Shown here in pieces: positions 9,180 through 28,800 of a stretch of 64,000 nucleotides of DNA (the stretch's first letter is position 1; every line of letters begins with the position of its first letter). The stretch comes from Thermodesulfobacteriota bacterium. GTDB lineage: Bacteria; Desulfobacterota_D; UBA1144; Nemesobacterales; Nemesobacteraceae. The notes below the pieces were generated by a model, which saw nothing but the letters and a program-made list of their open reading frames with translations, had not been told where the DNA came from and ran no database searches. The position numbers were made by a program, and so were the translations under genes. The stretch is from positions 513,177 to 577,176 of the forward strand of contig OZ251569.1 in the NCBI GenBank assembly GCA_965243595.1, read 5' to 3'.

Positions 9180-9395
9180 TCAATCGTCGCCTCCCGGTCC
9201 GTCGGACTCCCCGCCCCACACCTCGAGGCGGATTTCCCGTCCGGCCACGTCGAATTTTCCCTGAACTTCCTTTCCCGAAGGAAGAGTGAACGCTCCGGCG
9301 AACATACGGTTCTCCAGGGCGAAAAACAGGGGATTCTCAAGATCGACGGGCGTCGACTGCCCGGCAACCGGCGGCTTGTCCGAATCGTCTGCCAA
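9180..9395 (-). CDS. Small leader-like ORF (71 aa) heading the OLD operon. Its first ~50 codons and the upstream region are duplicated at 14187–14342.
   Basis: ORF 'MADDSDKPPVAGQSTPVDLENPLFFALENRMFAGAFTLPSGKEVQGKFDVAG...'. An AT-rich promoter-like region lies upstream (9400–9500). In the second copy the only differences are P->T and A->V substitutions, i.e. amino-acid sequence is retained. Confidence 0.4.
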   Translation of the reverse strand: MADDSDKPPVAGQSTPVDLENPLFFALENRMFAGAFTLPSGKEVQGKFDVAGREIRLEVWGGESDGPGGDD

Positions 9396-9400
9396 AACTG
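9246..9400 (-). repeat. ~155-bp dispersed repeat, copy 1 (5' end of the leader ORF of the OLD operon)
   Basis: Near-identical to 14187–14342 by direct reading (about 95% identity). Confidence 0.8.
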
Positions 9401-9565
9401 CTCCTCCGCAGATGCTGCAAACTTTTTCCCATTTTTCCTAACTATCGCAAATTTTTCATTTTTGCCTCCTTTGGACAGTTGTCCACATAATTTCCAAAAG
9501 TTTAAAAAATGATCTTCGAGAACATTCCCGGAGAAACAATCTATAAATCAGAGTTTCTTAAAAGC

Positions 9566-12262
9566 CTAAAGCCCTACAGAGTCGGTTTCCGCCTGTATCT
9601 GCGCGGCGACACGGGAACGAACCTGCTCATAGACCGCGATGCCCGATTCAATCTCCACCTCGAAACTGACGGCAATTGCATAGGGAACGGATTCATCATG
9701 CTTACCCGCCGTGTTGCGACAGGAAATATTGAGCATGAGATGTCCTTCATCAATCAGGTTTGTGGCGTTTCCCCCACATCTGCGCTCGTGCAGTATCGTT
9801 CCCCGCCTCACGGACCTGTCGCTCGGCTGATCTTGTTCCCGATGCGGAACCGGCCAGTATTTTTCACCGTTGCTGAAAGCTGTGTCCAAGGCCACCGCGC
9901 GGTACCCCTGATGCCTCATGTTGATCGGAGAGAACCACGCAAGCGTCAGCGTAAGGACGCGAGACGCCCGCAACCCGTCCAAGTCAGGGGGAAGGGGTAT
10001 CCGGTACAGCAAGGAGCTTTCAGGGTCTATCGTTCCCCAGCCCAGCAGCGTGGCGCGGTTCTCCGCACAACCTACGACACGGTCGATTCCAGGCACTCCG
10101 TATCCCAGCAGGCGGGCGATGTTGTCGCGTCTCTGGATATGTTTTCCCCGCCCCTGCGGTTCGAAAGTCGCGTCAAACTCCGAGCCCTTCGGTCCCCAGC
10201 GGGATCCGTGCACCAGCAGGGTTCTTACCGCCAGAGCCAGATACTCCTGCGGAATGTCCAAAAGGCTGGAATTGTCCTCGCCTTCGCCGGAAACGAGCAC
10301 GTCGTGAATCCTGTGCGCGGCTCTCGTGGCAAGAGCCGTCGCCACGCTGGTGCCGTGCGAGAACCTCTCCGCACGGTTGCTGCCCGATTTCCCCGGAGTC
10401 GCCACTTTTATTCCGAAGAACCGTTCCGAGCTTCTCGCCGGAGCGATTTTTATCGAGTCTTCGCCGGCCCGGCCCGAAAAACGTACCGGAGTCCTGCCTC
10501 CTTCCACCAGCAGGTCGGGTTTGACGGTTTTACGGTATCCCAGACCCATCGCCGAAACGATGCTCGGCAGCTCTTCGTCCGTGAAAGGGTCTACGAGACC
10601 TTGGTACCCGTGTCCGGCGAAGGCGGACCCCGAGTTCGCCGCACCGACGGTCAGAACGTTGATCGCTTCGGCCGGGGAAAGCAGCGTCCTGTGAATCTTG
10701 CTGTCGTTCACCGCATTGAGGATAAGTTTCTCGCGCAGGTCCGGAGACGCATTTTCCAGTTCCGCAAGAGTGCCGAATCCCGACACGACGAGTTGATCCG
10801 TCACGTTGCCGGCGCTTACCAGGAACTGCACCCCGTAGCGGTAAGCCAGGTGGTCGAGCAGGCGCGCGAGCGGACTCACGACTCCGGCGAAAGGGCGGCA
10901 CCTGTCTCCCAGCGACAGGTTGATCAAAATCACGTCCGGCGCCGAGGCCGGCTGCCCGCCGTCTCCTTCCTTTATGCGCTTCACCGCCCGGTAGACGACA
11001 TCTACGAACAACCGGTCCGGCAGCAGGCTTTCCGTCCCGCGGCCGTCCGGTCGCATTACGGGCAGCACGAAAAGGGGTCGCGGAATCGGCGGTTCTTCCC
11101 CGTTGAGGTCGCCGTGGATAATGAGGGACGACATTTCGGTTCCGTGCACCCGGTTTTCCACCAGGCAGACAGGTTCCAGGTCGTCGGGGTCGTCGATTAT
11201 CAGCCGTCCGGCGAGCCTGGCATGGTTTTGCGCCGGAAACCCGTCAAGCAAAGCCGCGACGGGCTTTCGTCGGCTTATATCCGGATCGGGGAAGATGTCC
11301 TCCTTCCCCTCTTCCTCTCCGTCTTCGGCGTCGTCTTTCGACGGTACGTGAGCTACGGATTGCGGACGCAGGAACATGATCTCGTCGGCCATGGCCAGCG
11401 TTATGTCCGGGTGATCGATCAGCCTTTGAACCTGGCCGGCAGGCACGTCAACCAATGCGGCGTGATAGCGGATATCCTGGATGACGGCGTGGTCGACGAT
11501 TTCCCCGCCGATGGAACCCACTTTTTCCTCCAGATCTCCGAAGCTGCGCCGCCGCCGCGAGCGGTCCTCGTAGTACCAGAGCTCGACCTCGAACCGAACG
11601 TCTTTTTCCGGATGTTCCTCAAGTTCCCCTCTCCAGAACGATACGGTCTCCGCCGGAACGCGGTCCTGCGGTCCCCACGGCCGCACCTCGATCAACAGCG
11701 AAAACAGTTCCTTCCACTGTCCCGTTCCATGCGGAAGCGGCTTTCCTTCGCGGAAAAGCTTCCAGAGTTTCAGAAGCTCTTTCAGCGACCGCTCGTCGGG
11801 CATGGCGAGATAAAGGCGGGCACTGATTTTCTTTTCCTGTCTTCTCTCGACACCCAGGTAGAAGTCGCCGGTGGGATCGACCTCTTCTTCTGACTCGCCG
11901 AGATATTCAAGCCCGAGTTTCCTGGCCTGCGCGTAAAAATCTCTCAGCGGTCCCGCGACCTCGAAAACGATCGCGCGTTCGGGGGCTATCGAGGACGGGT
12001 CGTCGCGCAAGCCCGCAAGCCCGTCCCGGTCTTCGAGGGCCTCGGTCAGTTTGCCGAACAGCGGGGCGAGGCGTTCCACCTGACGTTTGCGCGAAGGAGT
12101 CTGAAGATTGCTGACGAACCCTCTGCGATTCGCGGATTTTTCCGAAGGAGCGGGACTAGGAAGCCTGAGTAGGGGATATGCCTGCATGTTCCGTTTTTCG
12201 TTTCGTCGAGGGGGCGCGTTCGCGGGTTCTCCAGATTTCCAGCTGCTCCTTTGCGATTTCAT
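9566..12262 (-). CDS. S8-family subtilisin-like serine peptidase with a long N-terminal extension (IetS-like)
   Basis: Catalytic-triad contexts 'AALLDGFP' (Asp), 'VHGTEMSSLII' (His), 'ILINLSLG' (oxyanion Asn) and 'SHGTSVATALA' (Ser). 898 aa. Lies downstream of an AAA ATPase. The first ~100 nt overlap the upstream gene, so the start is probably an internal Met. Confidence 0.75.
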   Translation of the reverse strand: MKSQRSSWKSGEPANAPPRRNEKRNMQAYPLLRLPSPAPSEKSANRRGFVSNLQTPSRKRQVERLAPLFGKLTEALEDRDGLAGLRDDPSSIAPERAIVFEVAGPLRDFYAQARKLGLEYLGESEEEVDPTGDFYLGVERRQEKKISARLYLAMPDERSLKELLKLWKLFREGKPLPHGTGQWKELFSLLIEVRPWGPQDRVPAETVSFWRGELEEHPEKDVRFEVELWYYEDRSRRRRSFGDLEEKVGSIGGEIVDHAVIQDIRYHAALVDVPAGQVQRLIDHPDITLAMADEIMFLRPQSVAHVPSKDDAEDGEEEGKEDIFPDPDISRRKPVAALLDGFPAQNHARLAGRLIIDDPDDLEPVCLVENRVHGTEMSSLIIHGDLNGEEPPIPRPLFVLPVMRPDGRGTESLLPDRLFVDVVYRAVKRIKEGDGGQPASAPDVILINLSLGDRCRPFAGVVSPLARLLDHLAYRYGVQFLVSAGNVTDQLVVSGFGTLAELENASPDLREKLILNAVNDSKIHRTLLSPAEAINVLTVGAANSGSAFAGHGYQGLVDPFTDEELPSIVSAMGLGYRKTVKPDLLVEGGRTPVRFSGRAGEDSIKIAPARSSERFFGIKVATPGKSGSNRAERFSHGTSVATALATRAAHRIHDVLVSGEGEDNSSLLDIPQEYLALAVRTLLVHGSRWGPKGSEFDATFEPQGRGKHIQRRDNIARLLGYGVPGIDRVVGCAENRATLLGWGTIDPESSLLYRIPLPPDLDGLRASRVLTLTLAWFSPINMRHQGYRAVALDTAFSNGEKYWPVPHREQDQPSDRSVRRGTILHERRCGGNATNLIDEGHLMLNISCRNTAGKHDESVPYAIAVSFEVEIESGIAVYEQVRSRVAAQIQAETDSVGL

Positions 12263-13187
12263 TCGCGGAACGCCCGCCGAGCGCGAGAACCTGACGACGG
12301 ACGAGGTCGAGAAAAAACTGCTCCGCTTCTCCGTAGCTCAGCCCCCCGAGTTTTCCGGCCGCGAGCCGGGGGGATATTCCCAGTTCCACGCCGGCGCGGT
12401 CGGCGAGGGTTTCCAGAAAAGCGGCGGTCTGATTCCGGTTCGGCGCCGGCAGGGACAGCCGCAGCTCGAATCTTCTCCACACGGCGCGGTCGAGCAGTTC
12501 CGGATGGTTCGTGGCGGCGATGACGACGACGTAGCTGGGGAGTTCGTCGACCTGCATGAGCAGCGACGTCACAACGCGTTTTATCTCGCCCGTCTCGTGC
12601 CTGTCGCCGCGCTCCTTGCCCACGGCGTCGAATTCGTCGAAAAAAAGTACGCACGGAGTCGTGCGCGCGTAGTCGAAGACATGCTTCAGCCTGCCCGCCG
12701 TCTCGCCCAGGAAACTGCCTATCATCGTTTCGTAGCGCACGACGAAAAACGGCACGGCGAGACTTTCCGCGACGGCCTCGGCCAGCGAGGTCTTTCCGTT
12801 GCCGGGCGGGCCGACGAGCAGGACGCTGTGTCTCGGCTCGACGGAGTGGGAGCGCAGGACGTCGGCTCTCGCCTGTTCTTCGATCAGCTGGTCGACGGCC
12901 GTTCTCGTCGATTCGGGCAGGAAAAGTTCCCCGAGCTCCCTTGCGGGTTTTATCTCCGCCATGAAGTTCCGCGCTTTCGTCGAGACCGCGTCGTACGCAC
13001 CCCCGTTTCGGTGGAATTTTCCGTTTCCGTTCGAAGATGCTAGAAGACGCTCCAGACGGTCGGCGAGAATATTGTGTCGCTTGGCGCGTTCCTCGGCGAT
13101 TATTCTTTCCACGGTTTCCCTGAAAACTTTTCCGTCGCCGCTCCCGCCGGACTTCACCAAGCTGATCAGAAGGTCGCTTCTAGGCAT
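12156..13187 (-). CDS. Classical AAA+ ATPase (IetA-like), upstream partner of the S8 peptidase
   Basis: Walker A 'GPPGNGKT', Walker B 'VLFFDEFD' and second region of homology 'VVVIAATNHPELLDRAVWRRFE'. 343 aa. Confidence 0.85.
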   Translation of the reverse strand: MPRSDLLISLVKSGGSGDGKVFRETVERIIAEERAKRHNILADRLERLLASSNGNGKFHRNGGAYDAVSTKARNFMAEIKPARELGELFLPESTRTAVDQLIEEQARADVLRSHSVEPRHSVLLVGPPGNGKTSLAEAVAESLAVPFFVVRYETMIGSFLGETAGRLKHVFDYARTTPCVLFFDEFDAVGKERGDRHETGEIKRVVTSLLMQVDELPSYVVVIAATNHPELLDRAVWRRFELRLSLPAPNRNQTAAFLETLADRAGVELGISPRLAAGKLGGLSYGEAEQFFLDLVRRQVLALGGRSANEIAKEQLEIWRTRERAPSTKRKTEHAGISPTQAS

Positions 13188-14186
13188 CTCCGGTTCTCCC
13201 TGTCGTTTCGATCATCATGGAACCAACGGCCAGCCGCCCCGATGGTCCGAAGCGACGCCCGACGATTATCATTGTATAACACCAACGAGCCGCGGGCAAG
13301 AAATTTATGCGAGACCGACGCGGCAAGGGGTCAGGTCTTTTTGAGGAAACAGCATCCGCCCCTCCGCCGAGACACGACGCGGTCCGGCGGACAAAAAACT
13401 CCTGATTTCTTCTCCGCGAGACGCCCGTCTGGAACAAAGGACCGTCACATCCTCCAGATGCGGGGGAAGCCGGAAGACTCTCCCGGCCGTCGGCACTGGA
13501 CCGACGACTCCCGGCCCGCAGAGATTATCTCCGTCGTCTCAATCCCGTTTTCCGTTTTTCGAGTGAGAGGAGACCGGCATCCGTTCGAACTGGCGGCGGA
13601 AACCTTTCCTCCAGTCCACCGCACATAAGCCTAAGGCTTTCGGGTGGGGATGTCCGTATCGATTTCCCACACCCGCGCTTATCAGGACGACCCTGGAGAA
13701 ATAAAAGGAATGGTCTCCGCGCAGAGTCCGCTTTCTGACCCGTGATGAGGAGCCGCCATGACATCGGAGCTCATGAATTTCGGCCGCCTGCCCCTGCTTC
13801 TGAGAATTTCCAGAATCTTCAGGGTCTCCCAGGTCGACCGATTGCGGCTCAGAGCGGAAGCGTCGCCGCGGTCGTAAGCGAAACGAACGAACTCCGGGCA
13901 GGTGAACACGGACGCGCAGCAGAAATCGGCGGACGAGCAATGGCCGACCACCTTGGACAGCTCGGCAACGTGATCGTCGCGTCAATGAGAAGCGAACACG
14001 AGCGAGACCTGTGTCGAGAGATTGACCCCGATTCCTCTCAGGTACGATACGGCGGAACTCCGGGCAAGATGCGGAGTTTCCTTTTCGAGACAGGAATCGA
14101 CGATCATCCACTCGCCCCAGCCGACGTGAACGACCACCGACTCGCCGTAGCACGTGCCGACCAGCGAAACCTCCGCGACGTCCGGC

Positions 14187-14342
14187 CACGTCGAACTTTC
14201 CCTGAACTTCCTTTCCCGAAGGAAGAGTGAACACTCCGGCGAACATACGGTTCTCCAGGGCGAAAAACAGGGGATTCTCAAGATCGACGGGTGTCGACTG
14301 CCCGGCAACCGTCGGCTTGTCCGAATCGTCTGCCAAAATTTC
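14187..14342 (-). repeat. ~155-bp dispersed repeat, copy 2. Here it is fused out of frame to a fragment homologous to the start of the 387-aa gene family.
   Basis: Same sequence as 9246–9400. Downstream in the +1 frame it encodes 'DVAEVSLVGTCYGESVVVHVGWGEW...', which matches the fragment at 28727–28800. Confidence 0.8.
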
Positions 14343-14517
14343 TCCTTCGCAACATCTTAACATATCGGTCGAAGCCGTTCGCAAAACCGCCGTCATGAGT
14401 GGCGACAGCACCGATCTTGCGGTAAACTGCTCGAAAGACAATAATACGTCGGGCCGTCAAAGGCGCGTTGCGCGCGAGGAAGTCCCGAATTGTCGTCTCG
14501 CAAGGAAAACATGTTCA

Positions 14518-14844
14518 ATGAGCATCAATATCTCGGAACACTCTTTTGAAGGGCCCCATCCATGCGACGGCAATTCTCTGCGACGCTTGCCGGGCGTGTA
14601 CGTAATTCTCGGACTGAATTACGGCAACAGGTGGGAAGTCGTAGACGTAGGCGAAGCGCGAGACATCCGGAACCGAATCGCATCCCACGAACGCGGGGCT
14701 TGCTGGCGCGCGCAGGATCTGGCCAGTCTTTCGGTAGCGGTTCTCTACACCGACAGGCATCCCTATCGCTATAACGAACATCGGCGAATGCGTTTAGAGG
14801 CGAGAATCAGGAGAGAATACAATCCGCCTTGCGGCTTCAGGTAA
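14518..14844 (+). CDS. Small GIY-YIG-like nuclease-domain protein (~108 aa)
   Basis: 'GVYVILGLNYGNRWEVVDVGEARDIRNRIASHERG' fits the GIY-(10–11 aa)-YIG...R...H/E pattern. ATG at 14518 inside a longer ORF. Confidence 0.4.
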   Translation: MSINISEHSFEGPHPCDGNSLRRLPGVYVILGLNYGNRWEVVDVGEARDIRNRIASHERGACWRAQDLASLSVAVLYTDRHPYRYNEHRRMRLEARIRREYNPPCGFR

Positions 14845-15165
14845 GGACGGAGCGGGAAAGCGGCGGAGATCACGCGTGAAACGACCCTTGACGCGATCTT
14901 TTCTGAAAAGCCGGCTCACAGGGTCCCGAGGAATTGATGTTCAACTTCACGTTTCCCACATTCAACAAAGAGCATGTGGCTTGGCTTCGTGAAGGCCTGG
15001 TTTCCTGGAACAAAAGACGCGAAGAACAAGATTTCATTCCATACTTTGACGGCGCAGACCTCAAAAAGGAGCTCCAAGGAGCACCGTACCCGCCCCAAGA
15101 AGAAACCCTTGACTCGGGCTTGGGATACGGCCAGATAGACATGTCAGGACCATAAGCCACAAACT

Positions 15166-16188
15166 TCAGTTTGGAACGGGAGCGTTTGTCGACGGCTCAG
15201 CATGTACGCCCGGAAGGCGGTCGTTGATGGCAATGGACAGTTCCCGTCCGTGATTTCTGGTGTTGTCCGTGACGACCGTCTTCGCTCCCGTCGCTTCGAC
15301 AAACGCGAGCGTCCCCTCGAAATCGGCGTGGTTGGACAGCGCGACGCGGTAGGCCCTGTCCGAAAATTCCAACAGCGGATTATCAGGGTCAACCATAAAC
15401 GCACTGCAGGTCACGCTCGTCCCCTCGATCAGTTCGTTGCCGAAACCGTCGCCCTTTGAATACAACCGCACGTAGGACCGTTCCTTTGTCGCGAACCGCC
15501 CGGTCTCCGAATCCAGCGCTTCCAGGACGCCAACCGCGAACCCGTGCTCCCGATACACCTTTATTTCTCTCATGAGGCGTTCGCTGGCCAGAATCGGAAC
15601 GTTCAATTCAGGCCCGAGAACCTGAAGTACGCGTTCGATGGTTCCTCTGTGAGCCCTGATGTGCACAGAGCCGTGGCGCAGGCGGCTGCATACCACTTCC
15701 AGGAGACGTTCCTCGGCCTCGGCCTGCGTGTACCGTCGAACGCTTCTCGGACTTCCGTAGGTGCTGTCCACGACGAGCTGATCGACCTGTATCACGTCGT
15801 CAAGCGGCCAGCCGAAGTCGCCGGAATAGCCGCACAGCGTGCCGTCGGGGAGCGTGAGCGAGACCTGGCACGACCCGAGCATGTGACCGGACGGCGGAAG
15901 AGTCAGCACAGAGCCGTCTTCGAGAACGCGCTCGCCGCCCCGGTCGACCGGTATGAGGTTGTCGCGGTATTCCAGGTCGGCGTCATGCTCGGCGATAAGA
16001 AGCGAAAGAGTCTCCGGACTCATGAACAGGTCCTGCTGTCCCTTGCTCCTGTTGAAATCCCCCATGTGGTCGTCGTGGACATGCGTCTGGATCCGAACCG
16101 CGCAGTCCCCCGCGTAGCCGTCGCAGACGGTCCTCGGTCCGAGACGCACCGCGCCGTTTCCGAGGACGTCAACGACCGGACGCGCCAT
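15166..16188 (-). CDS. Metallo-beta-lactamase-fold hydrolase/nuclease
   Basis: 'HVHDDHMGD' is an HxHxDH motif. 340 aa. Last gene of a three-gene minus-strand operon. Confidence 0.75.
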   Translation of the reverse strand: MARPVVDVLGNGAVRLGPRTVCDGYAGDCAVRIQTHVHDDHMGDFNRSKGQQDLFMSPETLSLLIAEHDADLEYRDNLIPVDRGGERVLEDGSVLTLPPSGHMLGSCQVSLTLPDGTLCGYSGDFGWPLDDVIQVDQLVVDSTYGSPRSVRRYTQAEAEERLLEVVCSRLRHGSVHIRAHRGTIERVLQVLGPELNVPILASERLMREIKVYREHGFAVGVLEALDSETGRFATKERSYVRLYSKGDGFGNELIEGTSVTCSAFMVDPDNPLLEFSDRAYRVALSNHADFEGTLAFVEATGAKTVVTDNTRNHGRELSIAINDRLPGVHAEPSTNAPVPN

Positions 16189-16891
16189 TGTTCACGGTCT
16201 CCGAGATATGGCTCCGAAGCAGGGCCTCAACGTTTTCCTTCCCGACATCCAGCATGGAGACGTTGAAACGCTCGTCGCCGACGAGCGTGAAGAATCTGGC
16301 GCCCAGACGGCCGGTCGCCCCCTGAAGGTTAAACCGCTCGATGCCCGATTTCAGAACAGAATCCTTGGCCGCCTGCGTCAGGCCTCCGAGACGCGCAACG
16401 TCCTCCTCCGCCACCGAGCCGATAAAAACGTAGCGTCTCTCGACGACCGTACGCATGCGCAGAACTTCGTCTACGCACTCTTCTACGGAGCGCCCCGAAC
16501 GCTTTCGGAGCTGTGCCACCTGGCGGACTTCCCTGCTGTTGAGTCCCTTCGAAAGTATGACTTCGGCAACGGCCCGCTGGTCTTCGGGATCCGGGAATTT
16601 CGCCAGCTCGACGGCCGACGTGAAGCCGATGAACCCTTTCCCCGCGCCCCAGTCGACCAGGTGTCGAACATCCTCGGGCAGTTTCAGGATGCGCAGGAAA
16701 CGACCGATGTGCCCCGTACCGTCGAGCCGGACCGCCTCGGCGCAATCCTCCAGGGAGGTCCCTTCGTCGCGGGCCTTGCGAAGAAGCAGGCCCACCTCCA
16801 CCGGAGACAGCGGCCGACCCTTCTTTTGCCTTCCGTATCCGACGGACATGCGAAGACGCCCGAGATCCATGGCGTTCAAGCCGGCCAGCAT
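16169..16891 (-). CDS. ParB-like HTH domain protein (start taken at an internal Met 5 nt after the upstream stop)
   Basis: 'LSPVEVGLLLRKARDEGTSLEDCAEAV...GHIGRFLRILKLPEDVRHLVDWGA' resembles the ParB central HTH, as in 'RLLKLPeeVqelv'. Confidence 0.5.
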   Translation of the reverse strand: MLAGLNAMDLGRLRMSVGYGRQKKGRPLSPVEVGLLLRKARDEGTSLEDCAEAVRLDGTGHIGRFLRILKLPEDVRHLVDWGAGKGFIGFTSAVELAKFPDPEDQRAVAEVILSKGLNSREVRQVAQLRKRSGRSVEECVDEVLRMRTVVERRYVFIGSVAEEDVARLGGLTQAAKDSVLKSGIERFNLQGATGRLGARFFTLVGDERFNVSMLDVGKENVEALLRSHISETVNNGASGR

Positions 16892-16896
16892 CCGTT

Positions 16897-17382
16897 CTAC
16901 TCCTCGAGGAATCCCCTGTCCGTCAGGGACTGCTCGATCAGCATGGCCGCCGCTTCGTCCTGGTTGGCCCCTTCCTCCGCAGCGAATCTCCGCAGCGCCG
17001 CATGCGTATCCTGGGTCACCGTCGCGATGATCTGCGTCACTTTCCCCCCGCTCTTCGCCCACTCGATCACATCCTCAACCGGCTTGTCCGGATCCTTTCT
17101 GATCTCGCTGACGACTTTTTTGCGCTGGACATCCGTCATCGGCGCCATTTCCCGCGCGAGCCTGACCGCGCGCCCGGTGTCAACGTTTCCGTCCCGTTCC
17201 ACCGACGAGTCCTGCGCCCTCACGGCGACGTTGACGTCAACCTTGTGGTCGTCGACAAGAGCCTTCAGCTCGGGGACGAGCCGGGGGTACTTCACGTAGT
17301 CGCGCACCTTGTTCTCCGACAGTCCCGTGGTCCGGGCCACATCGGGAACGCTCCCGTAGATATTGTACCCCGTATTATTCAT
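16897..17382 (-). CDS. Small ParB-like HTH domain protein
   Basis: 'VPDVARTTGLSENKVRDYVKYPRLVPELKALVDDHKVDVNVAVRA' is ParB-HTH-like. First gene of the operon that contains the metallo-beta-lactamase-fold gene. Confidence 0.45.
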   Translation of the reverse strand: MNNTGYNIYGSVPDVARTTGLSENKVRDYVKYPRLVPELKALVDDHKVDVNVAVRAQDSSVERDGNVDTGRAVRLAREMAPMTDVQRKKVVSEIRKDPDKPVEDVIEWAKSGGKVTQIIATVTQDTHAALRRFAAEEGANQDEAAAMLIEQSLTDRGFLEE

Positions 17383-17580: not shown

Positions 17581-18282
17581 TCAGCCGCCCACCCAGCGCA
17601 CCCTGTCCATCATCGTCCACAACTTGTTCCAGTGCCCCGCGGCACAGGACGCTATGACGAAGTAAAGCCTGCGCGCATGACGCACCACGCGCGAAGCCAC
17701 GAGCAGCACTCGCTCCCTGAACCTGCGCAGACTCCAGCCTCTCTGCTCCACCTCCGGTTCCTCTATCACCGGATTACGGATACTGGACAGAATGTCCGGA
17801 GCCGCCTCTTCTTCTATCCATTGATGAAGGATGTCCGCTTTCCGTGCTTTTTCCGCTTCCTCCATCATGCGCCTTCCTATGTTCATGAACTGGTAGGAAA
17901 GCACAGAGAACAAAAACAGCGCCTCGTTGCGGGGATGAACTCCTTCTCTCTCCACGGGCGCGCAGGGCTCGAGCGCCCGCCCGCCGTAATGACTCTTCGG
18001 TCGGTCGGAGCAGGGAAGACCGGAGTGAACCACATTCTTGAATTCCCCTATGTGCCCCTCCGCCTTGCCGCGACGACGATACAGGGCCAACACCTGATCA
18101 GCATCGTGGGTGTCGCAACTCAAGCTGGTCACCAGCCAGAAGTGTTCGGGAAACAGCTTGCCCGCTCTGCGAACCACTACCAGCACCACCCGCCTCTCCC
18201 TCTCCCACGACTCTGCCTTGTAGGGCATGTTGTAACACTGCATCCACACACCGGGAGGAAGATACAGATAGGGCGCGGCCAT
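17581..18282 (-). pseudogene. IS4/IS1380-like DDE transposase, C-terminal fragment
   Basis: '...ADQVLALYRRRGKAEGHIGEFKN' matches the C-terminal conserved block of DDE_Tnp_1 transposases. The N-terminal catalytic half is missing. An IS1182-family element lies immediately upstream. Confidence 0.55.
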
Positions 18283-18299
18283 CCTCTCGAGTCTGGCGT

Positions 18300-19850
18300 T
18301 GGACTTGAGTCTGTCGGACTTTAGCGTCTATGTTCAATCGAGGTAAAATAAGAGAATCACAAGAACTACAGGAGAGAGAAGCATGCCTGAATTCGTTACG
18401 TTTGATCGGTCCACGCCAAGCATGTTGCCCGCGAGGGTGGATGATTACGTGCCCCAAGGGCATCTGGCCCGTTTCGTAGTGGAGATAGTGGCGCAACTGG
18501 ACCTGAGCGATTTGACGGAGGCGTATTCGGGCAGGGGTTCCAGGGCGTATCATCCTTCCATGATGGTAGCCTTGCTGTTTTACGGATATGCCACGGGGAC
18601 ATTTTCCAGTCGCAAGCTTGAGCAGGCTACATACGACAGCATTGCGTACAGGTATATCTGCGCCAACAACCATCCCGACCACGACAGCATAAACAGTTTC
18701 CGCAAGAGGTTTTTGGAGCAGCTTGAGGGGTTGTTCGGGCAGATTCTCGTGATGGCTCACGCGATGGGGATTCTCAAGATGGGGACGGTGAGTCTGGACG
18801 GCACGAAGATAAAGGCCAACGCGTCGAGACGCAAGAACTTGAGCTGGAAGCAGATACGCAAGGTGGACAAGCGCATACGCAGGGAGATAAAGGAGCTTAT
18901 GCGTAAGGCACAGGAGGCGGACAACAGCGAGAGTCCCGACGGAATAGACATTCCCGAGGAGTTAAACAGTCGCAGTGAGCGTCTTGAGGCTTTGAGCGAC
19001 GCGAAGCGGGAGCTTGAGCGCAGAGCGGAGCACAGATACGAACGAGAGAGAAAGCAGTATGAGGAGAAGATGGAAGAGCGCAGGGCCAAGGAACGACGCG
19101 ACGGGCGCAAGATACCAGGCCCCAAACCCAGGGAGCCTCAGCCCGGGCCGACGGACAAGGACAGGGTTAATCTTACGGATGAGCAGTCACGGATCATGTC
19201 GGTGAGCACTGGAGGATACGAGCAGAGTTACAACGTTCAGGCGATGGTGGACACCGAGAGCCGGATGATAGTGGGCAGGCACGTGACGCACAACGGCAAC
19301 GACAAGCGGGAGATGGAGCCTGCCCTTGAGCAGCTGGCAGAGGCGGAGAGGCTGGTGGGGGAGGCGGACAATCTTTTGGCCGACGCGGGTTACTACAGCA
19401 AAAAGAACGTGGAGGCTTGCACAGAGCACGGGGTCAGGCCGGTGATTTCCATACGCAACGAGAGGAGAGGTCACAAGTCGGCAAAGCCGCCCAAAGCCGT
19501 TGCGAAGAACAAGACGGCAGTGGATGAGATGAAGGAGCTTCTGGAGACGGAGGAAGGCAAGGCGTTATACGCCAGGCGCAAAAGCACTGTGGAACCGATG
19601 TTCGGAGTGATAAAACACGTGCTGGGGTTTGGCCGGTTTTTTATGCGAGGGATCAAGGCTGTGAGCAGGGAGTGGAGTCTGGTATGTATAGGCTACAACC
19701 TGAAGAAGATGTTCACATTGAGGACGAATTAGAGAGGGAGGAGGCAAAAACGGGAGAATAGACGGCAACGCACACGCAAAAACGGACAATATACTGCCAA
19801 GGTATCACGCCGTCTTGAACAAAACGACTGGTTCTCGATGTCAAACAGCT
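18300..19850 (+). mobile_element. IS1182-family (IS5 superfamily) insertion sequence; ends approximate
   Basis: Contains an intact transposase gene. Clear inverted repeats were not resolved by eye, only a weak 'atcgag' match at the two ends. Confidence 0.55.
18383..19732 (+). CDS. IS1182-family transposase
   Basis: N-terminal transposase_31/DUF772-like region, then 'DAGYYS' and 'VEPMFGVIKHVLGF' DDE-domain blocks. 449 aa. Confidence 0.85.
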   Translation: MPEFVTFDRSTPSMLPARVDDYVPQGHLARFVVEIVAQLDLSDLTEAYSGRGSRAYHPSMMVALLFYGYATGTFSSRKLEQATYDSIAYRYICANNHPDHDSINSFRKRFLEQLEGLFGQILVMAHAMGILKMGTVSLDGTKIKANASRRKNLSWKQIRKVDKRIRREIKELMRKAQEADNSESPDGIDIPEELNSRSERLEALSDAKRELERRAEHRYERERKQYEEKMEERRAKERRDGRKIPGPKPREPQPGPTDKDRVNLTDEQSRIMSVSTGGYEQSYNVQAMVDTESRMIVGRHVTHNGNDKREMEPALEQLAEAERLVGEADNLLADAGYYSKKNVEACTEHGVRPVISIRNERRGHKSAKPPKAVAKNKTAVDEMKELLETEEGKALYARRKSTVEPMFGVIKHVLGFGRFFMRGIKAVSREWSLVCIGYNLKKMFTLRTN

Positions 19851-20761: not shown

Positions 20762-22131
20762 ATGCCTGAGAGCAATCCTGACCGCCATAGACTAAGATTT
20801 TCCCAGAGATACGGTTTCAAGGGAATTCCCGAACCCGTGAAGCCGGGGGAAATCAGCGAGAAAGCTCGAAAACGGATATGGAACAAGCTGTATGAGTCTG
20901 TGAGATGGGTTTGGAGCTACAACGAAGATTTCTTTAAATATAAGAAGGTGGATGACCCATGGGTCGACATCCTTGCATACCTGTATGACGAATCTTTCGA
21001 ATTGACGTTGGATACGTTCTCACCTTCCTACAACAGGTTTCTTCGGGAATACAAAGACCTTATATGCGGTTCCGACGAAGATGCGTTACCGCCCGAGGAA
21101 CTCCTCGACCTGATTGAAGGGATCATCGCCCATCAGGAGTGTCCTCCGGAATTCGTCAACGACATCGCCGAAACATTCGAAGAATGCCGTCTTCCCTACG
21201 GGGTGAACAAGACCCCTCCGGCGAGCATTTACGTCGCCGAGGACGAAGCGACGCGGAAACTGGCACTGCAACCGGCTCTGGCCGTCTTGGCGGAACCGCG
21301 TTTCGAAGTCGCGGACGAGGAATTTCGAAGTGCCATATACTGGAAAAATATCTGGACGCCTACACCACCGCGCTGAAAGGTCAGCGGTTCGACCTGATGT
21401 ACATCGACGCGTTCGCCGGCACGGGTTCCGTGGAACTGCGTCGGGAAGACTATCGGGGGTTTGTACAGGAATTCATACCCGGTTCGGCGAAGATAGCTGT
21501 GGGAATTGAGAACAAGCCGTTTGACAAGCTGGTTTTCGTTGAACGGGATACCGGCAGGTGCGAGAAGCTGCGGGAGGTCGAGAGGGAAAACCCCGGCAGA
21601 AACATCAGGATAGAAAACCGAGAGGCGAACGAGTTTCTGGTCGGCATGACGGAGAACTGGGGCAACTGGCGGGGCGTGCTTTTTCTGGATCCGTTCGCAA
21701 CTCAGGTTCGGTGGTCGACCGTTGAAAAGATAGCGGGCTTCAATGCGCTCGACACGTGGATTCTCTTTCCGACGTCCGCGGTTTCGCGCATGCTGCCGAT
21801 ATCCAGAAAGCCTGGAGACATCAGCGAGGCGTGGGTCGAGAAGTTGAACAAGGTATACGGCGACGACAGCTGGAAAAATCTTTACGGCAAGAACCCGCAG
21901 TTGCACCTGTTCGGAGTTAAAGAGTACAAACGGACTCACGGCGTCAGCGGGCTTGTGGAAATCTACAAAGATAAGCTCGGGGAGCTTTTCGGCGACAGGT
22001 TCCTTCGAGAGTCCTGCCCTTTGAAAAACTCGAACAACTCGGAGCTGTTCGAATTCCTGTTCTGCGTCGGCAACGAAAGAGGAATCGGTCCCGCGAAAAA
22101 AATCGCTGAACATATTCTGGGGCACATATAA
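20762..22131 (+). CDS. tcmP: TcmP (three-Cys-motif partner protein) family domain preceded by a 204-aa N-terminal region in another frame. There is an apparent +1 frameshift near 21300–21375.
   Basis: The TcmP-like region runs from '...[35 protein letters not shown]...' to the end at 22131. This frame has no ATG, GTG or TTG near the domain start; its upstream part is Arg-rich junk. The other frame (20762–21376) has protein-like composition. Confidence 0.55.
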
Positions 22132-22133
22132 CG

Positions 22134-22802
22134 ATGTCTTCGCGTTCCTCCATAGAATGGACCGAAGTCACCTGGAATCCTGTGACGGGCTGCACGAAGA
22201 TAAGCGACGGTTGCAAACACTGCTACGCGGAACGGATGGCCGGGCGCCTGCGGGCGATGGGAGTGGAGAAATACCGTCGCGGGTTCGAAGTCGCCCTCCA
22301 CGAAGATGCCCTGAAGGAGCCGCTCGGATGGAAAAAGCCGAGGCTCGTTTTCGTCAACTCGATGAGCGACCTGTTTCACGAAGCCGTCCCCGCGGAGTTC
22401 GTGGAATCGGTTTTCGACGTGATGAGCCGGGCGCGGGAGCATACGTTCCAGGTGCTCACCAAGCGGCCGGAGCGGGTCCTGCGGCTCGGCGCCCGGCTTC
22501 GGTGGACGCCGAACGTCTGGCTGGGCGTGAGCGTGGAGTCCGAAAGATGGCTGGGCCGTCTGGACGCGATTGCGGACACGGGCGCCTGCGTGAAGTTCCT
22601 TTCCCTGGAACCGCTGCTGGGGCCGCTTCCCGGGATCGATCTTTCGGGCGTCGACTGGGTCATAGTCGGCGGGGAATCGGGGCCGGGAGCGAGACCCATG
22701 GAGGCCGACTGGGTGAGGGACATACGGGACGGCTGCGCGGAGAGCGGGGTTCCCTTTTTCTTCAAGCAGTGGGGAGGAGTGTTCAAGAAGCGGCGGGGGT
22801 GA
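22134..22802 (+). CDS. Phage Gp37/Gp68 (DUF5131) three-Cys-motif protein
   Basis: '[28 protein letters not shown]' is the hallmark N-terminus. Starts 3 nt after the TcmP-like gene. Confidence 0.8.
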
Positions 22803-22962
22803 GTTCTCGATGGCAGGACGTGGAACCAGATGCCCGCGAGGCCTTCGGCTCTGGAGGAAAATAGAGACGGCTTGCGGTTAGGCAGGGATTTCTGAAGGTT
22901 GCCGCAAAGGACCTGTCGACTCGGCGCGGGGAGTCTTTACCGGTTCCGCGACCTCTCTGGTT

Positions 22963-23214
22963 TCAATACGCGGTTTCAGTCGGCGTCACGCTTTTGCAAC
23001 CGCGCGTCAACGCCACGTAGAGGTCCCGATGAGTGCCCCAGTTTTTCTCCTGCCAGTCGACATCGCGGACAATCACGGCGTGATCAGACTTGAGTCTCTT
23101 GACCAGGGGACACGGCGCCGAGGAATAGCTGATTTGGAGTTTTGAAGCCGATACCTCGATCAGTCCATCTTTAAAACTTTTCGTCTGGCGCTTGATTTCT
23201 TCCCCATACACCAA
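22963..23214 (-). pseudogene. Remnant of an SF1 helicase C-terminus
   Basis: 'DLYVALTRG' resembles helicase motif VI ('YVAxTRA'). Only 83 aa remain. Confidence 0.3.
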
Positions 23215-23253
23215 ATTTGATTATAACTCCATCGGGGAAAATCGTTCGGCACC

Positions 23254-23694: not shown

Positions 23695-24909
23695 TCAGCT
23701 GGCAACGCCGACGCTCCTCAGGAATTTCAGGGCGTTAGGGTTGCAGTTGAGAAAACCCGACACCGATCCGCTCCCTGAAATTCTCAGTATCTTGTCCGCA
23801 AGATCGGAGCATTGATAAAAGAATACGAATTTCAAGGATGATGAGTCCAGAAATTCCAGGGAGAGCACTTCGTCCGGAGAGGATTCCCATTCCGCCACGA
23901 TGTTTCCCTCGTATGTCAAGGCCAGGCCGGGAACCGCTTCTATGCCCGAATCGAAAACCCGCTTCAGAAAGTCGATCAGCCCCCGGTAGGAATCGCCCGA
24001 AAGCGGCAGTTGCCCCAGCCCTTCCGATTCTTCCTCGAGAGCGGCCTCTCTGAGTTCCTCGATTCGGGGTCTTATCCTGTCTTCGATTTCTTTTTCGGAC
24101 AAGCCGCTTCTCAGTTCCCGAAGGTTTCGGCAGAGATCCCGCAGGAACTTCATGGCCTTGGGATGGTGGTCGAGAAAATCCGACACCGAACCGTCGCCCG
24201 AAGTCCTGAGTGTTTTGGAAGAAAGGGAGTCGGGATAGAAAAACACGAATTTCAGTCGGAAGAAGTCCACAAATTCCAGTATGAGAAACTCCTCGTCGGA
24301 AGATTCCCACTCAGCCCTGATGTTTCCCTCATAGGTCAGGTCCAGCTCGGGAACCAGATACATGCCCATATGGACGATTTTGTTCAGAAACCGAGCCAGT
24401 CCCCGGTAGGAATCGTTTGACAACGGCAGCTGTCCCTCCGATTCTTCCTCGAGAGCGGCCTCTCTGAGTTCCTCGATTCGGGGTCTTATCCTGTCTTCGA
24501 TTTCTTTTTCGGACAAGCCGCTCCCCGGTTCCCGAAGGTTGTCGCGCAGCTCCAGGCAAGCGGAGAAACCGTCTTTCTCTGGGGAGGAATTCCCAGCATG
24601 CTCCTGCGACCTTCCGCCGCGGACGACATAGATCCGGGTCGCGAATTCATTGACCTTCACGCGGACGATTCCCTGCCGCTGCAGTTCGGCGAACACCTGG
24701 TCGAGGACACCTTTTTTCGCCCATCTGTTCATGCGGGTATAGACGGTGTGCCAGTTGCCGAAACGTTTCGGCAGTCCTCTCCACTTGCACCCGCTTTCGG
24801 CCACGTAGAGTATGGCATTCAGAAAATCCAGATTGCTCATCTTTACGTTGCCGCGCTGGCGGGGCAGCAAATCCTTGATCCGCTCGTATTGCTGAGGCGT
24901 GAGTTTCAT
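23695..24909 (-). CDS. Chimeric protein: an IS5-family transposase N-terminal HTH (DUF4096-like) followed by two tandem copies of a ~135-aa domain of unknown function
   Basis: N-terminus 'LNAILYVAESGCKWRGLPKRFGNWHTVYTRMNRWAKKG' is IS5/DUF4096-like. Two repeats follow, each containing 'SGLSEKEIEDRIRPRIEELREAALEEESEG..QLPLS.DSYRGL...LTYEGNI.AEWESS...LEF.D...LKFVFFY'. The DNA tandem repeat has a ~404-bp period (e.g. 'gagagcggcctctctgagttcctcgattcgg' at 24047 and 24451). Confidence 0.6.
   Translation of the reverse strand: MKLTPQQYERIKDLLPRQRGNVKMSNLDFLNAILYVAESGCKWRGLPKRFGNWHTVYTRMNRWAKKGVLDQVFAELQRQGIVRVKVNEFATRIYVVRGGRSQEHAGNSSPEKDGFSACLELRDNLREPGSGLSEKEIEDRIRPRIEELREAALEEESEGQLPLSNDSYRGLARFLNKIVHMGMYLVPELDLTYEGNIRAEWESSDEEFLILEFVDFFRLKFVFFYPDSLSSKTLRTSGDGSVSDFLDHHPKAMKFLRDLCRNLRELRSGLSEKEIEDRIRPRIEELREAALEEESEGLGQLPLSGDSYRGLIDFLKRVFDSGIEAVPGLALTYEGNIVAEWESSPDEVLSLEFLDSSSLKFVFFYQCSDLADKILRISGSGSVSGFLNCNPNALKFLRSVGVAS
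23718..24565 (-). repeat. Tandem ~404–420-bp coding duplication inside the chimeric gene; a third diverged copy lies at 31001–31420
   Basis: Direct DNA identity between the two units. About 85% identity to the third copy over stretches such as 'gaaaacccgacaccgatccgctccctgaaattctcag'. Confidence 0.75.
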
Positions 24910-26480: not shown

Positions 26481-26496
26481 CGGAGCCGAGCTTTGT

Positions 26497-26650
26497 TCAG
26501 CTTTCCAAACCCAGGAATTCTGTAAGACTTTGCGCTTTTCTCTCCACGCGCGCCATGTCTTCGGCCGTCCTGACGTGCCGGATGAACGTTATGCGCCCGA
26601 AAGCCTCCTCGGTGCCGTCCGTCCGCGGCTCTCTCGGGCTCATCGGGAGG
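26497..26650 (-). pseudogene. C-terminal fragment of the small-protein family typified by 28336..28716
   Basis: '...FGRITFIRHVRTAEDMARVERKAQSLTEFLGLES*' versus '...FGRMAFRRLPGRTPADLRRIEERARSLIDFLGLES*'. The upstream part is out of frame or degenerate. Confidence 0.4.
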
Positions 26651-27129
26651 AGACATCTGATGTGCGTGGCGGAAGATGAAGACTCCGCTTGACCGGGATC
26701 GGTATCCGGGGCCGGAATCGGAAAAAGACCGGAAACACGAATTGGCGAAGCCCGAATTGGCGTGTACGTTATTCCGAGGAGGAGAGAAACCGTGAACAAC
26801 GGGAAGAACAGTGGGAGCGATGTCGGAAGCGCTGGCGGCCGGAGTCTCGAGTCGTTGCATCGCAGTTTTTTCAAGCATCCGGATGACGGGAGCTGGAGTG
26901 CGACGCGCTCTCTCGCCCAGCCGTCTTTCCTCAAGCAGATTGACAGTCTCGCGGGCGCGCACAGCACGCCGGCGAGATATTTTTTCAGCCGTGTCCGAGA
27001 ACAGGCGGCAACGCCCGGCCGGTCCGAAGTGCTCCGGGAAACAAGCGACATACCGATCTCCGCCCCGGCTTCGAAGCTGGTCGAGAGTGGAAATTCCGGC
27101 TTTTCTTGCTGAAGCGGGAGGACGAGATG

Positions 27130-27303
27130 AAAGAGAAGAAGGACATGCCCGAAGAGCGGTCGAAAAAGCTGTCCGACGCGAAAAAGAGCCTTGACGACAT
27201 CATGAAGAGAATCGAGCCTTTTCTGCCCGAAAAAACTCAGGTTCTTCACAAGCAGTACAGCGAGTGGAAAAGCGGTGCGTCTTCTTCGGCGAAGTTCGGA
27301 TAA
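27130..27303 (+). CDS. Small ORF sharing its promoter/leader and first ~10 codons (MKEKKDMPEE) with 28336..28716, then diverging
   Basis: DNA 27062–27170 is ~85% identical to 28271–28385. The reading frames differ after codon ~12. Confidence 0.3.
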   Translation, partial: KEKKDMPEERSKKLSDAKKSLDDIMKRIEPFLPEKTQVLHKQYSEWKSGASSSAKFG

Positions 27304-27949: not shown

Positions 27950-28231
27950 ATGAAACGAAAAAACAAGGGAATGTCTTTTGACAGCTGGCTTGACGAAGAA
28001 GGCATCAGGGAAGAAGTCACCGTGGCGGCTCTCAAGCGCGTGCTTGCCCGCCGGATCGCCGCCGAGATGAAACGGGACGGCATTACGAAGACGGAGATGG
28101 CGCGGCGGATGCGAGCCGGCCGCGGCACTCTCGACCGCCTTCTGGACGCGGGAGACGGGTCTGTCACTCTCGCGACCCTGTGCAAGGCCGCTTCGGCGGT
28201 CGGGCGCGAGGTGCGTCTGGACCTCGTGTAG
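27950..28231 (+). CDS. XRE-family HTH DNA-binding protein (antitoxin-like)
   Basis: 'ITKTEMARRMRAGRGTLDRLLD...SVTLATLCKAASAVGREVRLDLV' is a typical HTH_XRE followed by a C-terminal dimerisation tail. ATG at 27950. Confidence 0.6.
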   Translation: MKRKNKGMSFDSWLDEEGIREEVTVAALKRVLARRIAAEMKRDGITKTEMARRMRAGRGTLDRLLDAGDGSVTLATLCKAASAVGREVRLDLV

Positions 28232-28335
28232 ATGGTGTAGGGCGGAATCTCCGCGGGTTTTCGATTTTCGCCACGGCTTCGAAGAACTGATCGAGAGTGG
28301 AAATTCCGGCTTTTTCGCTGAAGCGGAAGGGCGAG

Positions 28336-28716
28336 ATGAAAGAGAAAAAAGACATGCCCGAAGAGAAGCCGTCCGAACGGTTCGAAGAAATCATTCAGGA
28401 CTGGGAGGGCGTCGTCGACGAGGTGTGCGAGGACGAGGGAATCTTCACGGCGCGGCTGTGCGACCTCACTGCCGGCGAAATCTATCCGAGCGAAACCGCG
28501 GAGATTCCGATCGAGGACGTTTCGGACGACGACAGGGAACTGCTTCGTCCGGGCGCGGTGTTCTACCTGACGACGGGCCGGGCGCTTCGCAGTGGCCGGT
28601 GGGAGCTATTCGGACGCATGGCGTTCAGGCGGCTGCCGGGCCGGACGCCGGCCGATCTGCGGCGCATCGAGGAGCGCGCCCGGAGTCTCATCGACTTTCT
28701 GGGTCTGGAAAGCTGA
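28336..28716 (+). CDS. Hypothetical acidic small protein. It founds a local paralog family (a C-terminal copy at 26497–26650 and a shared 5' cassette at 27062–27170).
   Basis: 127 aa from 'MKEKKDMPEE...SLIDFLGLES'. Immediately followed by a fragment homologous to the start of the 387-aa gene family. Confidence 0.45.
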   Translation: MKEKKDMPEEKPSERFEEIIQDWEGVVDEVCEDEGIFTARLCDLTAGEIYPSETAEIPIEDVSDDDRELLRPGAVFYLTTGRALRSGRWELFGRMAFRRLPGRTPADLRRIEERARSLIDFLGLES

Positions 28717-28726
28717 ACGACGCTCC

Positions 28727-28800
28727 GCCTCCGGACGTCGCGGAGGTTTCGCTGATCGGCATGGGCTACGGCGAGTCGATGGTCGTTCGCGTCGGCGGGG
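28727..28800 (+). pseudogene. N-terminal fragment (~25 aa) of the 387-aa protein family
   Basis: 'PDVAEVSLIGMGYGESMVVRVGG' matches the 14.1-kb fragment. The frame then decays into an Arg-rich read-through. Confidence 0.4.

Follow-up and report, generated by a model that had tools for sequence, protein, structure and literature searches.

How do the 5' ends of defence genes come to be scattered, as partial copies, through a single genomic island? The question is raised by a 64,000-nucleotide (nt) stretch of a Thermodesulfobacteriota bacterium (contig OZ251569.1, positions 513,177 to 577,176; hereafter the window, with all positions counted from its first letter). Three short loci in its defence island are related to each other. 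Copy 1 (9238-9410, minus strand) is the start of an ApeA-like HEPN gene that precedes a gene for an OLD-type ATPase, copy 2 (14179-14351, minus strand) is an orphan duplicate of that start fused to another gene, and copy 3 (28713-28800, plus strand) is the stub of this other gene, which encodes a metallo-beta-lactamase (MBL)-fold protein, here called MBL-A. An initial annotation, made by eye, had attributed the mosaic to repeated recombination between paralogous defence operons, or to a mechanism exchanging cassettes at the first gene of the operon. Our analysis points to a more ordinary origin. Illegitimate recombination in a defence island that is decaying has probably left the three loci as scars, and none of them is likely to be a functional element.

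The repeats and the copy-2 junction

The relationship of the three loci was borne out by self-BLAST and a repeat search of the window. Positions 9238-9410 and 14179-14351 form a gapless direct repeat of 173 nt, identical at 166 positions (96%, E=1e-75; about 95% had been estimated by eye for the first half of copy 2), and the longest perfect tract between the two copies is 58 nt. In inverted orientation, positions 14116-14185 match 28731-28800 over 70 nt, 64 of them identical (91%, E=2e-21). The loci had thus been placed correctly, with limits a few bases short at each end. The similarities are neither shorter nor weaker than read by eye, and the matches extend beyond the ends first given.

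Copy 1 comprises 15 nt of the 5' untranslated region, including the ribosome-binding site (RBS), and ApeA codons 1-52, and is continuous with the body of ApeA. Copy 2 is an orphan duplicate of this ApeA 5' end. Its upstream side is continuous with a spacer (U2) and a 108-amino-acid (aa) gene, an arrangement also found in a related locus (L090), and its other side is fused out of frame to MBL-A. Copy 2 is indeed a junction, as had been proposed: the 173-nt repeat and the 70-nt match meet with an overlap of 7 nt at 14179-14185, CCGGACG in gene orientation. This heptamer is present in both parents of the joint, on the ApeA side and on the MBL-A side (copy 3 and locus L001). One frame over, the second half of copy 2 does match copy 3, as the initial annotation had read it. 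The frame that reads PDVAEVSLVGTCYGES also matches the intact 367-aa ComEC-type MBL-fold family (P0001-P0005), with up to 85% identity.

Other parts of the earlier reading stood less well. The two frames thought to overlap, both coding in an ancestor, do stem from two different ancestral genes, but they abut at the junction without overlapping, and the "STWP" reading is ApeA out of frame. A looser resemblance between copy 2 and "DVSLIGCERK", in the 387-aa open reading frame (ORF) that forms most of ApeA, is marginal and not above chance: for this pair, chosen post hoc, the local nucleotide score was 19 against a shuffle mean of 14.1, with 41 of 1000 shuffles as good (21 of 1000 at the protein level). 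Homology of this segment to the MBL start was rejected, as it falls in conserved motifs of two unrelated families, "KVSLIDC" in ApeA_NTD1 and "EVSLIGTGYGES" in the MBL proteins. The 265-aa coding sequence (CDS) deposited at NCBI for copy 2 (P0007) starts as ApeA and reads out of frame through MBL debris. It forms a one-member cluster and is likely a spurious ORF.

The island holds further fragments beyond the three loci. These are an MBL-family gene tail (13442-13773), a second 5'-end duplication (27054-27156 versus 28262-28365, 88%) and another operon remnant (26481-26608), each of which is described below.

The ApeA-OLD module

What had been described as a leader ORF (9395->9180) and a separate 387-aa ORF (9164->8001) is a single ApeA-like HEPN gene (8001-9395, minus strand). 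Both ORFs lie in one frame with one TGA between them, the ApeA_NTD1 domain spans the stop, the homologues read through it and relatives have TGC; hence there is no leader ORF. On the read-through product, Pfam places ApeA_NTD1 (PF18862, E=2e-11) at aa 33-295, aligned across the stop, and HEPN_Apea (PF18739, E=3e-7) at aa 347-428. The Rx4-6H motif of the HEPN domain appears as "RNRYVH" in the alignment of homologues, and all of the eighty-odd ApeA homologues, 490-520 aa long, are continuous across the position of the stop in the window.

Two lesions distinguish the gene from its relatives. The in-frame TGA at 9180-9182 is TGC (Cys) in L004 and L090, and 117 nt that L090 retains are deleted in frame at about 8911-8919. 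These two lesions make the gene a pseudogene, inactivated by a C-to-A nonsense mutation (TGC to TGA). Recoding of TGA was considered for this codon and for a second in-frame TGA, in the MBL-A fragment, and rejected: relatives have TGC (ApeA) and TGG/Trp (MBL-A), genes of up to 960 aa are open under table 11, and a TGA ends the middle gene of the MBL-A operon.

The second gene of the pair, an OLD/AriA-like ATPase of 615 aa (6089-7936, minus strand), is intact (Pfam AAA_15, PF13175, E=2e-73; PADLOC AriA E=4e-61, Old E=3e-22). It is 91% identical in nucleotides to L004, where the orthologue has 614 aa. No Pfam match to a TOPRIM domain was obtained in its C-terminus even at E<=1; the PADLOC GajA and Old profiles reach partly into the C-terminal half, and a "CVEGPHD" motif can be seen by eye. 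The ApeA-like HEPN gene and the OLD/AriA-like ATPase gene (window 6089-9395, minus strand; L004 1-3209) look like a two-gene module, which a relative has preserved as a unit. Different lesions break its HEPN gene in L004 (a frameshift) and in the window (TGA and the 117-nt deletion), and on L090 this gene is open over the 230 N-terminal codons that the locus contains. A search of genome contigs with ApeA gave no match.

An empty site in relatives

The state of the locus before the duplication can be read from two related loci, L090 and L091, which were found through near-identical relatives of the 108-aa gene. Positions 1-707 of L090 match window 8830-9410 at 94-96%, and positions 535-1507 match window 14179-15125 at 90%. 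Both loci have a single 173-nt copy that runs directly into the body of ApeA at one end and into U2 and the 108-aa gene at the other, in other words an empty site. Since they carry this single-copy site, the window holds an insertion of 4,768 nt (9411-14178) with a target duplication of 173 nt. As copy 2 is a partial gene only, the single-copy state is the ancestral one, even had L090 reverted. The native upstream region of ApeA is thus the spacer U2 (14352-14517) with the divergently transcribed 108-aa gene (14518-14844, plus strand), matched by L090 at 90%; the 108-aa protein has no Pfam or NCBIfam match. Two further loci, L088 and L089, end in the 108-aa gene, short of copy 2.

Copy 1 is identical to the single L090 copy at 165 of 173 positions. 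With L090 as outgroup, three of the seven differences between copies 1 and 2 are specific to copy 1 and four to copy 2, so both copies have drifted since the event. The end of L004, which lies 16 nt inside the repeat, was considered as a sign of a duplication in a relative and rejected, as the offset does not fit a k-mer-graph break.

Beyond the 108-aa gene, window 15121-17368 (minus strand) matches L088 3647-5894 at 95.7% and encodes a 340-aa protein with a weak MBL-like match together with HTH_ParB and ParB_N genes. In L088 this module is preceded by GmrSD and an SNF2 helicase; in the window it is cut short by transposase fragments (17581-18282). A pentapeptide/FRG gene stands between the 340-aa and 108-aa genes in L088, L089 and L090 and is missing from the window.

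The inserted block

The block is composite. From the copy-2 side to the copy-1 side it consists of an MBL-A fragment, an MBL-B tail, the genes IetA and IetS, and a spacer that we call S2, all on the minus strand. Its two complete genes are adjacent and intact, and together would encode an IetAS anti-phage system. IetA (12156-13187), an AAA+ ATPase, matches the PADLOC IetA profile PDLC04232 at E=1e-141 (1-328 of 330 profile positions) and Pfam AAA, and is 93% identical in amino acids to P0218, encoded on loci L006 and L007. IetS (9566-12262), an S8 peptidase, matches the PADLOC IetS profile PDLC04233 at E=2.5e-287 (1-851 of 855) and Pfam Peptidase_S8; judging from an orthologue of 838 aa, its true start is likely near 12082. 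Both proteins miss the NCBIfam equivalog cut-offs (IteA 227 bits versus 510, IteS 48.5 bits versus 900). The IetAS pair of the window is for this reason a divergent subtype, fully recognised only by the additional profiles of PADLOC.

The limits of the IetAS cassette are sharp. Window 13401->9566 is 89.5% identical to L006/L007, including the region upstream of IetA (13188-13401, with a promoter-like site at 13299->13271), and the homology ends exactly at the IetS stop codon, which marks IetAS as a discrete cassette. S2 and the MBL debris are extra to the cassette as found in L006/L007. Among 80 IetAS loci, none has MBL-A, MBL-B, ApeA or OLD within 10 kb, and a conserved MBL-IetA-IetS or IetAS-ApeA-OLD operon was rejected on this count. 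A search of genome contigs with IetA retrieved only relatives of 68% identity or less, and exact-protein look-ups of the window's IetA, 387-aa ORF and 139-aa ORF returned no record.

Between IetAS and copy 2 lies a chimeric MBL pseudogene. The MBL-A fragment (13764-14185) covers codons 7-147 of the 367-aa family, with 91% nucleotide identity to L001 10019-10440 and 84% amino acid identity, and a TGA at 13982-13984 replaces the Trp of its SHWHDDH motif. It is followed by about the last 110 codons, through the stop, of a second ComEC-type family of 303-304 aa (P0036/P0037), here MBL-B (13442-13773). This part carries two frameshifts, has 81.5% nucleotide identity to L002 7711-8046 and aligns by tblastn to residues 195-304 of P0036. 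The switch falls between "...KFMSSD" and "VMAAPHHGS...", at a microhomology of 8-10 nt, TGAGCTCC(GA). The MBL fold itself is recognised in intact homologues (P0001: Lactamase_B, 26.1 bits, cut-off 22.7; P0036: C-terminal region of ComEC_Rec2, TIGR00361, E=3e-22), and the window fragment alone has no Pfam match.

At the 3' end of the block, S2 (9411-9565) is an AT-rich spacer of 155 nt with 34% GC and carries a promoter-like site (9485->9458) upstream of ApeA. Neither the loci retrieved for comparison nor metagenome contigs contain a homologue of it, and a metagenome scan with an invariant part of the 173-nt repeat gave no match.

Copy 3 and the right edge of the island

Copy 3 holds nt 1-88 of MBL-A. 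In place of the ATG start codon it has a mutated one, CTG, and the gene breaks off after some 29 codons. Copy 2 begins at MBL-A nt 19 and copy 3 ends at nt 88, which yields the 70-nt overlap (28731-28800). Together with the sequence before it, copy 3 belongs to a larger remnant: window 28355-28800 is 93% identical to L001 9643-10088 and contains the last two thirds of a middle gene and the first 88 nt of MBL-A. In intact form, MBL-A is the third gene of a conserved operon encoding proteins of about 235 aa, 190 aa and 367-379 aa, the last being the ComEC-type MBL-fold protein. Two copies of this operon are found in L001 (8728-11104 and 20485->18040) and one in L003 (8716-11104), among cyclic oligonucleotide-based antiphage signalling system (CBASS), Gabija, toxin-antitoxin and other defence genes. 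Its first two proteins have no Pfam, NCBIfam or PADLOC match, and the MBL protein is weakly similar to the "6A-MBL" anti-phage model. The operon is a candidate for an uncharacterised defence system.

Remnants of this operon lie at 28336-28800, 13764-14185 and 26481-26608 in the window. The third (minus strand) is older and consists of the last ~40 codons of a paralogous middle gene and ~21 nt of an MBL start; it is common to the same-species locus L005, within a block of 97% identity. The gene directly before copy 3, annotated with 139 aa (28262-28716, plus strand), is itself a chimera. Its first part (28262-28365) duplicates the 5' end of a small gene, Z, and continues in frame into the 190-aa middle gene (about codons 74-190) through a 10-nt microhomology, GCCCGAAGAG. 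The source of this second duplication lies at 27054-27156 (plus strand), comprises 73 nt of upstream sequence and Z codons 1-10 (MKEKKDMPEE), and is 88% identical to 28262-28365.

Next on the plus strand (28862-30555) come the island's right edge and the core gene for a TolC-like protein (28993-30555). From 28944 on, the core is 98.7% identical to the same-species strain (L001/L005), which carries quite different cassettes in the slot next to TolC. The sequence upstream of TolC, from about 28862, resembles that of L006/L007 and not that of L005. We regard L006/L007 as a sister species because their TolC is 87.5% identical to that of the window over the first 792 nt. There, IetAS stands directly upstream of TolC, in TolC orientation.

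Duplicated gene ends occur in the L001 island as well, at 11116-11497 (matching window 22727-23106, a DUF5131 3' end, placed after MBL-A) and at 8561-8645 (matching window 13444-13529, an MBL-B 3' end, placed before the operon). Such scars are therefore common in the island of this species and not special to this genome.

Origin of the block and rival explanations

The ancestral layout was one ApeA-like HEPN gene, followed here and in L004 by the OLD-type ATPase gene and divergent from the 108-aa gene. The block 9411-14178 now lies within the first 52 codons of ApeA, with the 173-nt target (RBS and codons 1-52) duplicated on both sides. ApeA therefore kept its full reading frame behind a new upstream region (copy 1), and its orphan 5' end (copy 2) was fused out of frame through the 7-nt microhomology. 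Copy 3 is the beheaded remainder of the three-gene operon of MBL-A at the right island edge beside TolC. As the sister species keeps IetAS in the slot next to TolC, as the sequence upstream of TolC in the window is sister-like and as the same slot holds the beheaded MBL-A operon, we infer that the block moved within the genome, inverted, from the TolC-adjacent slot. The process would have generated duplications and used microhomology, either by template switching or by repair of staggered breaks. An inverted transposition would give the observed order of segments if the breaks at the target and at the left end of the donor were staggered and so caused duplications, and two nested inversions with staggered breakpoints would be equivalent. 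The fragments would then have decayed neutrally, and ApeA would later have gained its nonsense mutation and deletion, with OLD staying intact.

The divergences are consistent with this course. Third-position identity between the window and the sister species is 0.83 for IetA and 0.75 for TolC, a similar divergence. The six differences in the 70-nt overlap all fall at codon positions 1 or 2 and are split two to four between the copies. The two duplications, with 7 differences in 173 nt and 6 in 70 nt, are statistically indistinguishable (Fisher p=0.21), and their divergence is of the order of that at third positions within the species, about 6%.

Several observations weigh against an intragenomic move. 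The 60 nt to the right of copy 3 (28801-28861) match nothing and S2 has no homologue, so no sequence joins IetS-S2 to the TolC flank, and the grounds for deriving the block from the TolC slot are circumstantial. Copy 2 shares more positions with the L001 allele (68 of 70) than with copy 3 (64 of 70), and the distance between copies 1 and 2 (7) is nearly as large as that of either from L090 (8-9); two alleles from separate lineages could give both results as well. The gene that precedes IetAS in the sister species does not belong to the MBL genes. Any microhomology at junction 9410/9411 is limited to 4 nt, and "TGCG", common to the repeat start and to the sequence right of copy 3, was discarded as too short to count at 4 nt. 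The structure of the window is taken from the assembled sequence.

A serious rival, which concerns the origin of the block only, is that a fragment was imported from a strain in which IetAS and the spacer already stood upstream of ApeA-OLD. Copies 1 and 2 would then be donor and recipient alleles and copy 3 an unrelated older remnant. The fragment could have formed a circle at CCGGACG that a single crossover within the 173-nt ApeA 5' homology brought into the genome, or could have entered as linear DNA by homology-facilitated illegitimate recombination (HFIR). Such an import would need one illegitimate join only, and the joint between S2 and the repeat, native to the donor, would need no microhomology. 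The 4% divergence between copies 1 and 2, about equal to their divergence from L090, the near-star relations among copy 1, copy 2 and L090 and among copy 2, copy 3 and L001, and the greater closeness of copy 2 to L001 than to copy 3 would all fit. Precedents exist for both routes, as single-crossover integration in E. coli gave homology duplications of 109-950 bp (PMC3240628) and HFIR has been proposed for orphan arrays in type VI secretion system (T6SS) and Rhs loci (PMC5361080). Yet no IetS-S2-ApeA adjacency was found in the genomes or contigs searched, and an import would leave as coincidence the 70-nt overlap between block start and stub, the presence of IetAS in the same slot of the sister species, and an IetAS divergence that matches the species divergence. 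We therefore consider import possible and rather unlikely.

The remaining explanations concern the mechanism. Paralogous defence operons might, as first proposed, have exchanged sequence by homologous recombination or gene conversion, for which the two paralogous MBL-A operons of L001 and the at least three remnants of the window would be suitable material. A mosaic built by repeated recombination was rightly seen, but the partners, ApeA, MBL-A and MBL-B, are different genes: at each joint (ApeA/MBL-A, MBL-A/MBL-B, Z/middle gene) they share 7-10 nt of microhomology only, and even the paralogous operons, 67-71% identical in DNA, are too diverged for efficient exchange, which makes this process very unlikely. 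Still less can be said for a programmed exchange of 5' cassettes, comparable to a shufflon, an integron or phase variation, with the 173-nt segment as a portable expression cassette. Such a scheme would account for two duplications of an RBS and first codons before another gene within 20 kb, one of them (Z/middle gene) in frame, and for the clustering of several breakpoints near gene starts. The copy-2 fusion, however, does not preserve the reading frame, and the gene joined to copy 2 is disrupted by a nonsense codon and frameshifts; the products are pseudogenes; the joints all differ in place and sequence (CCGGACG, TGAGCTCC(GA), GCCCGAAGAG); substitutions in the copies are unconstrained; and relatives show a simple single-copy site. 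There are no terminal inverted repeats, no Rfam match and no excess folding, and Pfam detected no tyrosine or serine recombinase in about 20 island ORFs scanned, a set that does not include every small ORF. DDE transposases in the scanned ORFs lie away from the junctions (18383-19732 intact; 17581-18282 and 23695-24909 partial). We regard the exchange of cassettes as highly improbable. Insertion of a transposon or insertion sequence (IS) was rejected as well: no terminal inverted repeats pair the ends of 9411-14178, the duplication is 173 nt long, and the block encodes only IetA, IetS and gene fragments. The same holds for the idea that a hairpin or quasi-palindrome makes the MBL-A 5' end a hotspot (folding no better than shuffles, z=-0.5 in the window and in L001) and for a tRNA, transfer-messenger RNA or structured RNA as integration target (tRNAs only at 39 kb and 44 kb, no Rfam match in 1-34 kb). 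An assembly artefact, that is a misjoin or mis-resolved repeat in the 2.27-Mb contig, might be suspected from the fact that the ApeA/MBL-A and S2/copy-1 joints are seen in this assembly only and that P0007 is a one-member cluster. It is hardly credible, as collapsed or misjoined repeats would be identical and these copies have diverged (96% and 91%) with spread differences, each junction side is supported by other assemblies (L001, L002, L004, L006, L090), the joints fall at microhomologies, and the fragments carry decay mutations of their own.

A more speculative thought starts from the position of the breakpoints, roughly 7 of 10 of which lie within about 160 nt of a start codon (a post hoc count), three of them in the first 90 nt of MBL-A-type genes. 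It is conceivable, if improbable, that translation-initiation regions are systematically fragile or targeted, so that 5' ends are shuffled among defence genes and sometimes give expressible in-frame fusions, such as the 126-aa product. Were this true, defence islands would capture promoters and 5' ends by a route that does not depend on homology, and the scars would not be random accidents.

Implications for the island

Illegitimate recombination with decay of the resulting pseudogenes would be an ordinary course of events in a defence island whose content turns over fast. The phenomenon is well documented, with no new mechanism or system involved. The value of the locus lies in a nucleotide-resolved record of island remodelling, in which the empty site, the 173-nt duplication of the target, the joints at microhomologies and a dated course of neutral decay can all be followed. 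An intact IetAS would have arrived in the ApeA-OLD module and disconnected it, and the module then decayed. ApeA-OLD is likely separated from its native promoter region, standing now behind IetAS and a spacer with a promoter-like site. For annotation, the leader ORF is a pseudogene piece, the 139-aa gene a chimera, and the deposited 265-aa CDS probably a spurious ORF. The 173-nt repeats, with their 58-nt perfect tract, could in principle allow a rare RecA-dependent loop-out of the 4,941-nt unit.

Other features of the window

At the left end, two plus-strand ORFs of 790 and 960 aa (34-2406 and 2463-5345) match positions 350-771 and 1193-2087 of the PADLOC Avs3a profile, and the window begins inside the first of them. 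The pair represents one Avs3-like gene that was split or has decayed, or else a variant made of two genes. Of a UvrD/GajB-like helicase, no more than the final ~80 codons are left (22966-23238, minus strand), right after a PDC-M41-like pair (21139-22802); at the equivalent place, the same-species strain L001 carries GajB and GajA in full. A 404-aa ORF with an IS4/5-type DUF4096 N-terminus (23695-24909, minus strand) carries within it a segment of about 414 nt that is duplicated in tandem (23716-24126 versus 24139-24540, 76%); a third copy, at 31041-31399, is related to these two. Just outside the island, a unit of 99 nt (33 codons) is repeated in tandem eight times or more within a 443-aa ORF (31500-32600, minus strand), and its period resembles that of ankyrin repeats. 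Further to the right, an inverted repeat of 36 nt (86%) brackets a 322-aa gene (52317-53285) at 52304-53394. A 42-nt segment at the edge of this gene (52347-52388) recurs at 23117-23158 (86%). The gene with its inverted repeats may be a small mobile element or its ends.

Comparison with known systems

Some integrating elements replace the end of the gene that they enter with a version of their own. Examples are e14 and phage 21 in icd of E. coli, with a duplicated gene end of roughly 165 bp. The likeness to the window is evident, as a diverged direct repeat of a gene end of ~170 nt flanks the insert and the target is intact through the copy that adjoins its body. In contrast to the window block, e14 and phage 21 encode an integrase and use a defined core site. 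The block has neither an integrase nor an attachment-site-like core common to the other joints, and a junk gene fragment stands at its end.

A similar geometry arises by single-crossover (Campbell-type) integration, which through short homology duplicates that homology, over 109-950 bp in E. coli (Amarir-Bouhram et al. 2011, PMC3240628). The resulting direct duplication flanks the insert just as copies 1 and 2 flank the 4.77-kb block. That study, however, used a laboratory plasmid with engineered homology, whereas the block in the window ends in gene fragments and not in vector, and no circular donor is known.

Arrays of orphan modules in Vibrio cholerae T6SS effector-immunity loci, and the displacement of C-termini in Rhs and contact-dependent inhibition (CDI) loci, have been attributed to HFIR (Kirchberger et al. 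2017, PMC5361080). As in the window, conflict loci there gain modules by insertion, with displaced genes, orphan fragments and short duplications, through one homologous anchor and one illegitimate join. In those arrays the constant 5' part is kept and 3' toxin tips are displaced, and the orphans are often intact, useful as immunity genes and re-expressible. Here, by contrast, the duplication affects the 5' end of an unrelated gene, the fusions have become pseudogenes, and each module is a complete defence system unrelated to the others.

Defence-island hotspots are characterised by a rapid turnover of cassettes between strains. Our locus shares this feature, as the TolC flank is 98.7% identical between two strains of the same species, the contents of their islands are almost wholly different, and the IetAS cassette has sharp limits. 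The window is thus an example of the same phenomenon at the nucleotide level, including the empty site.

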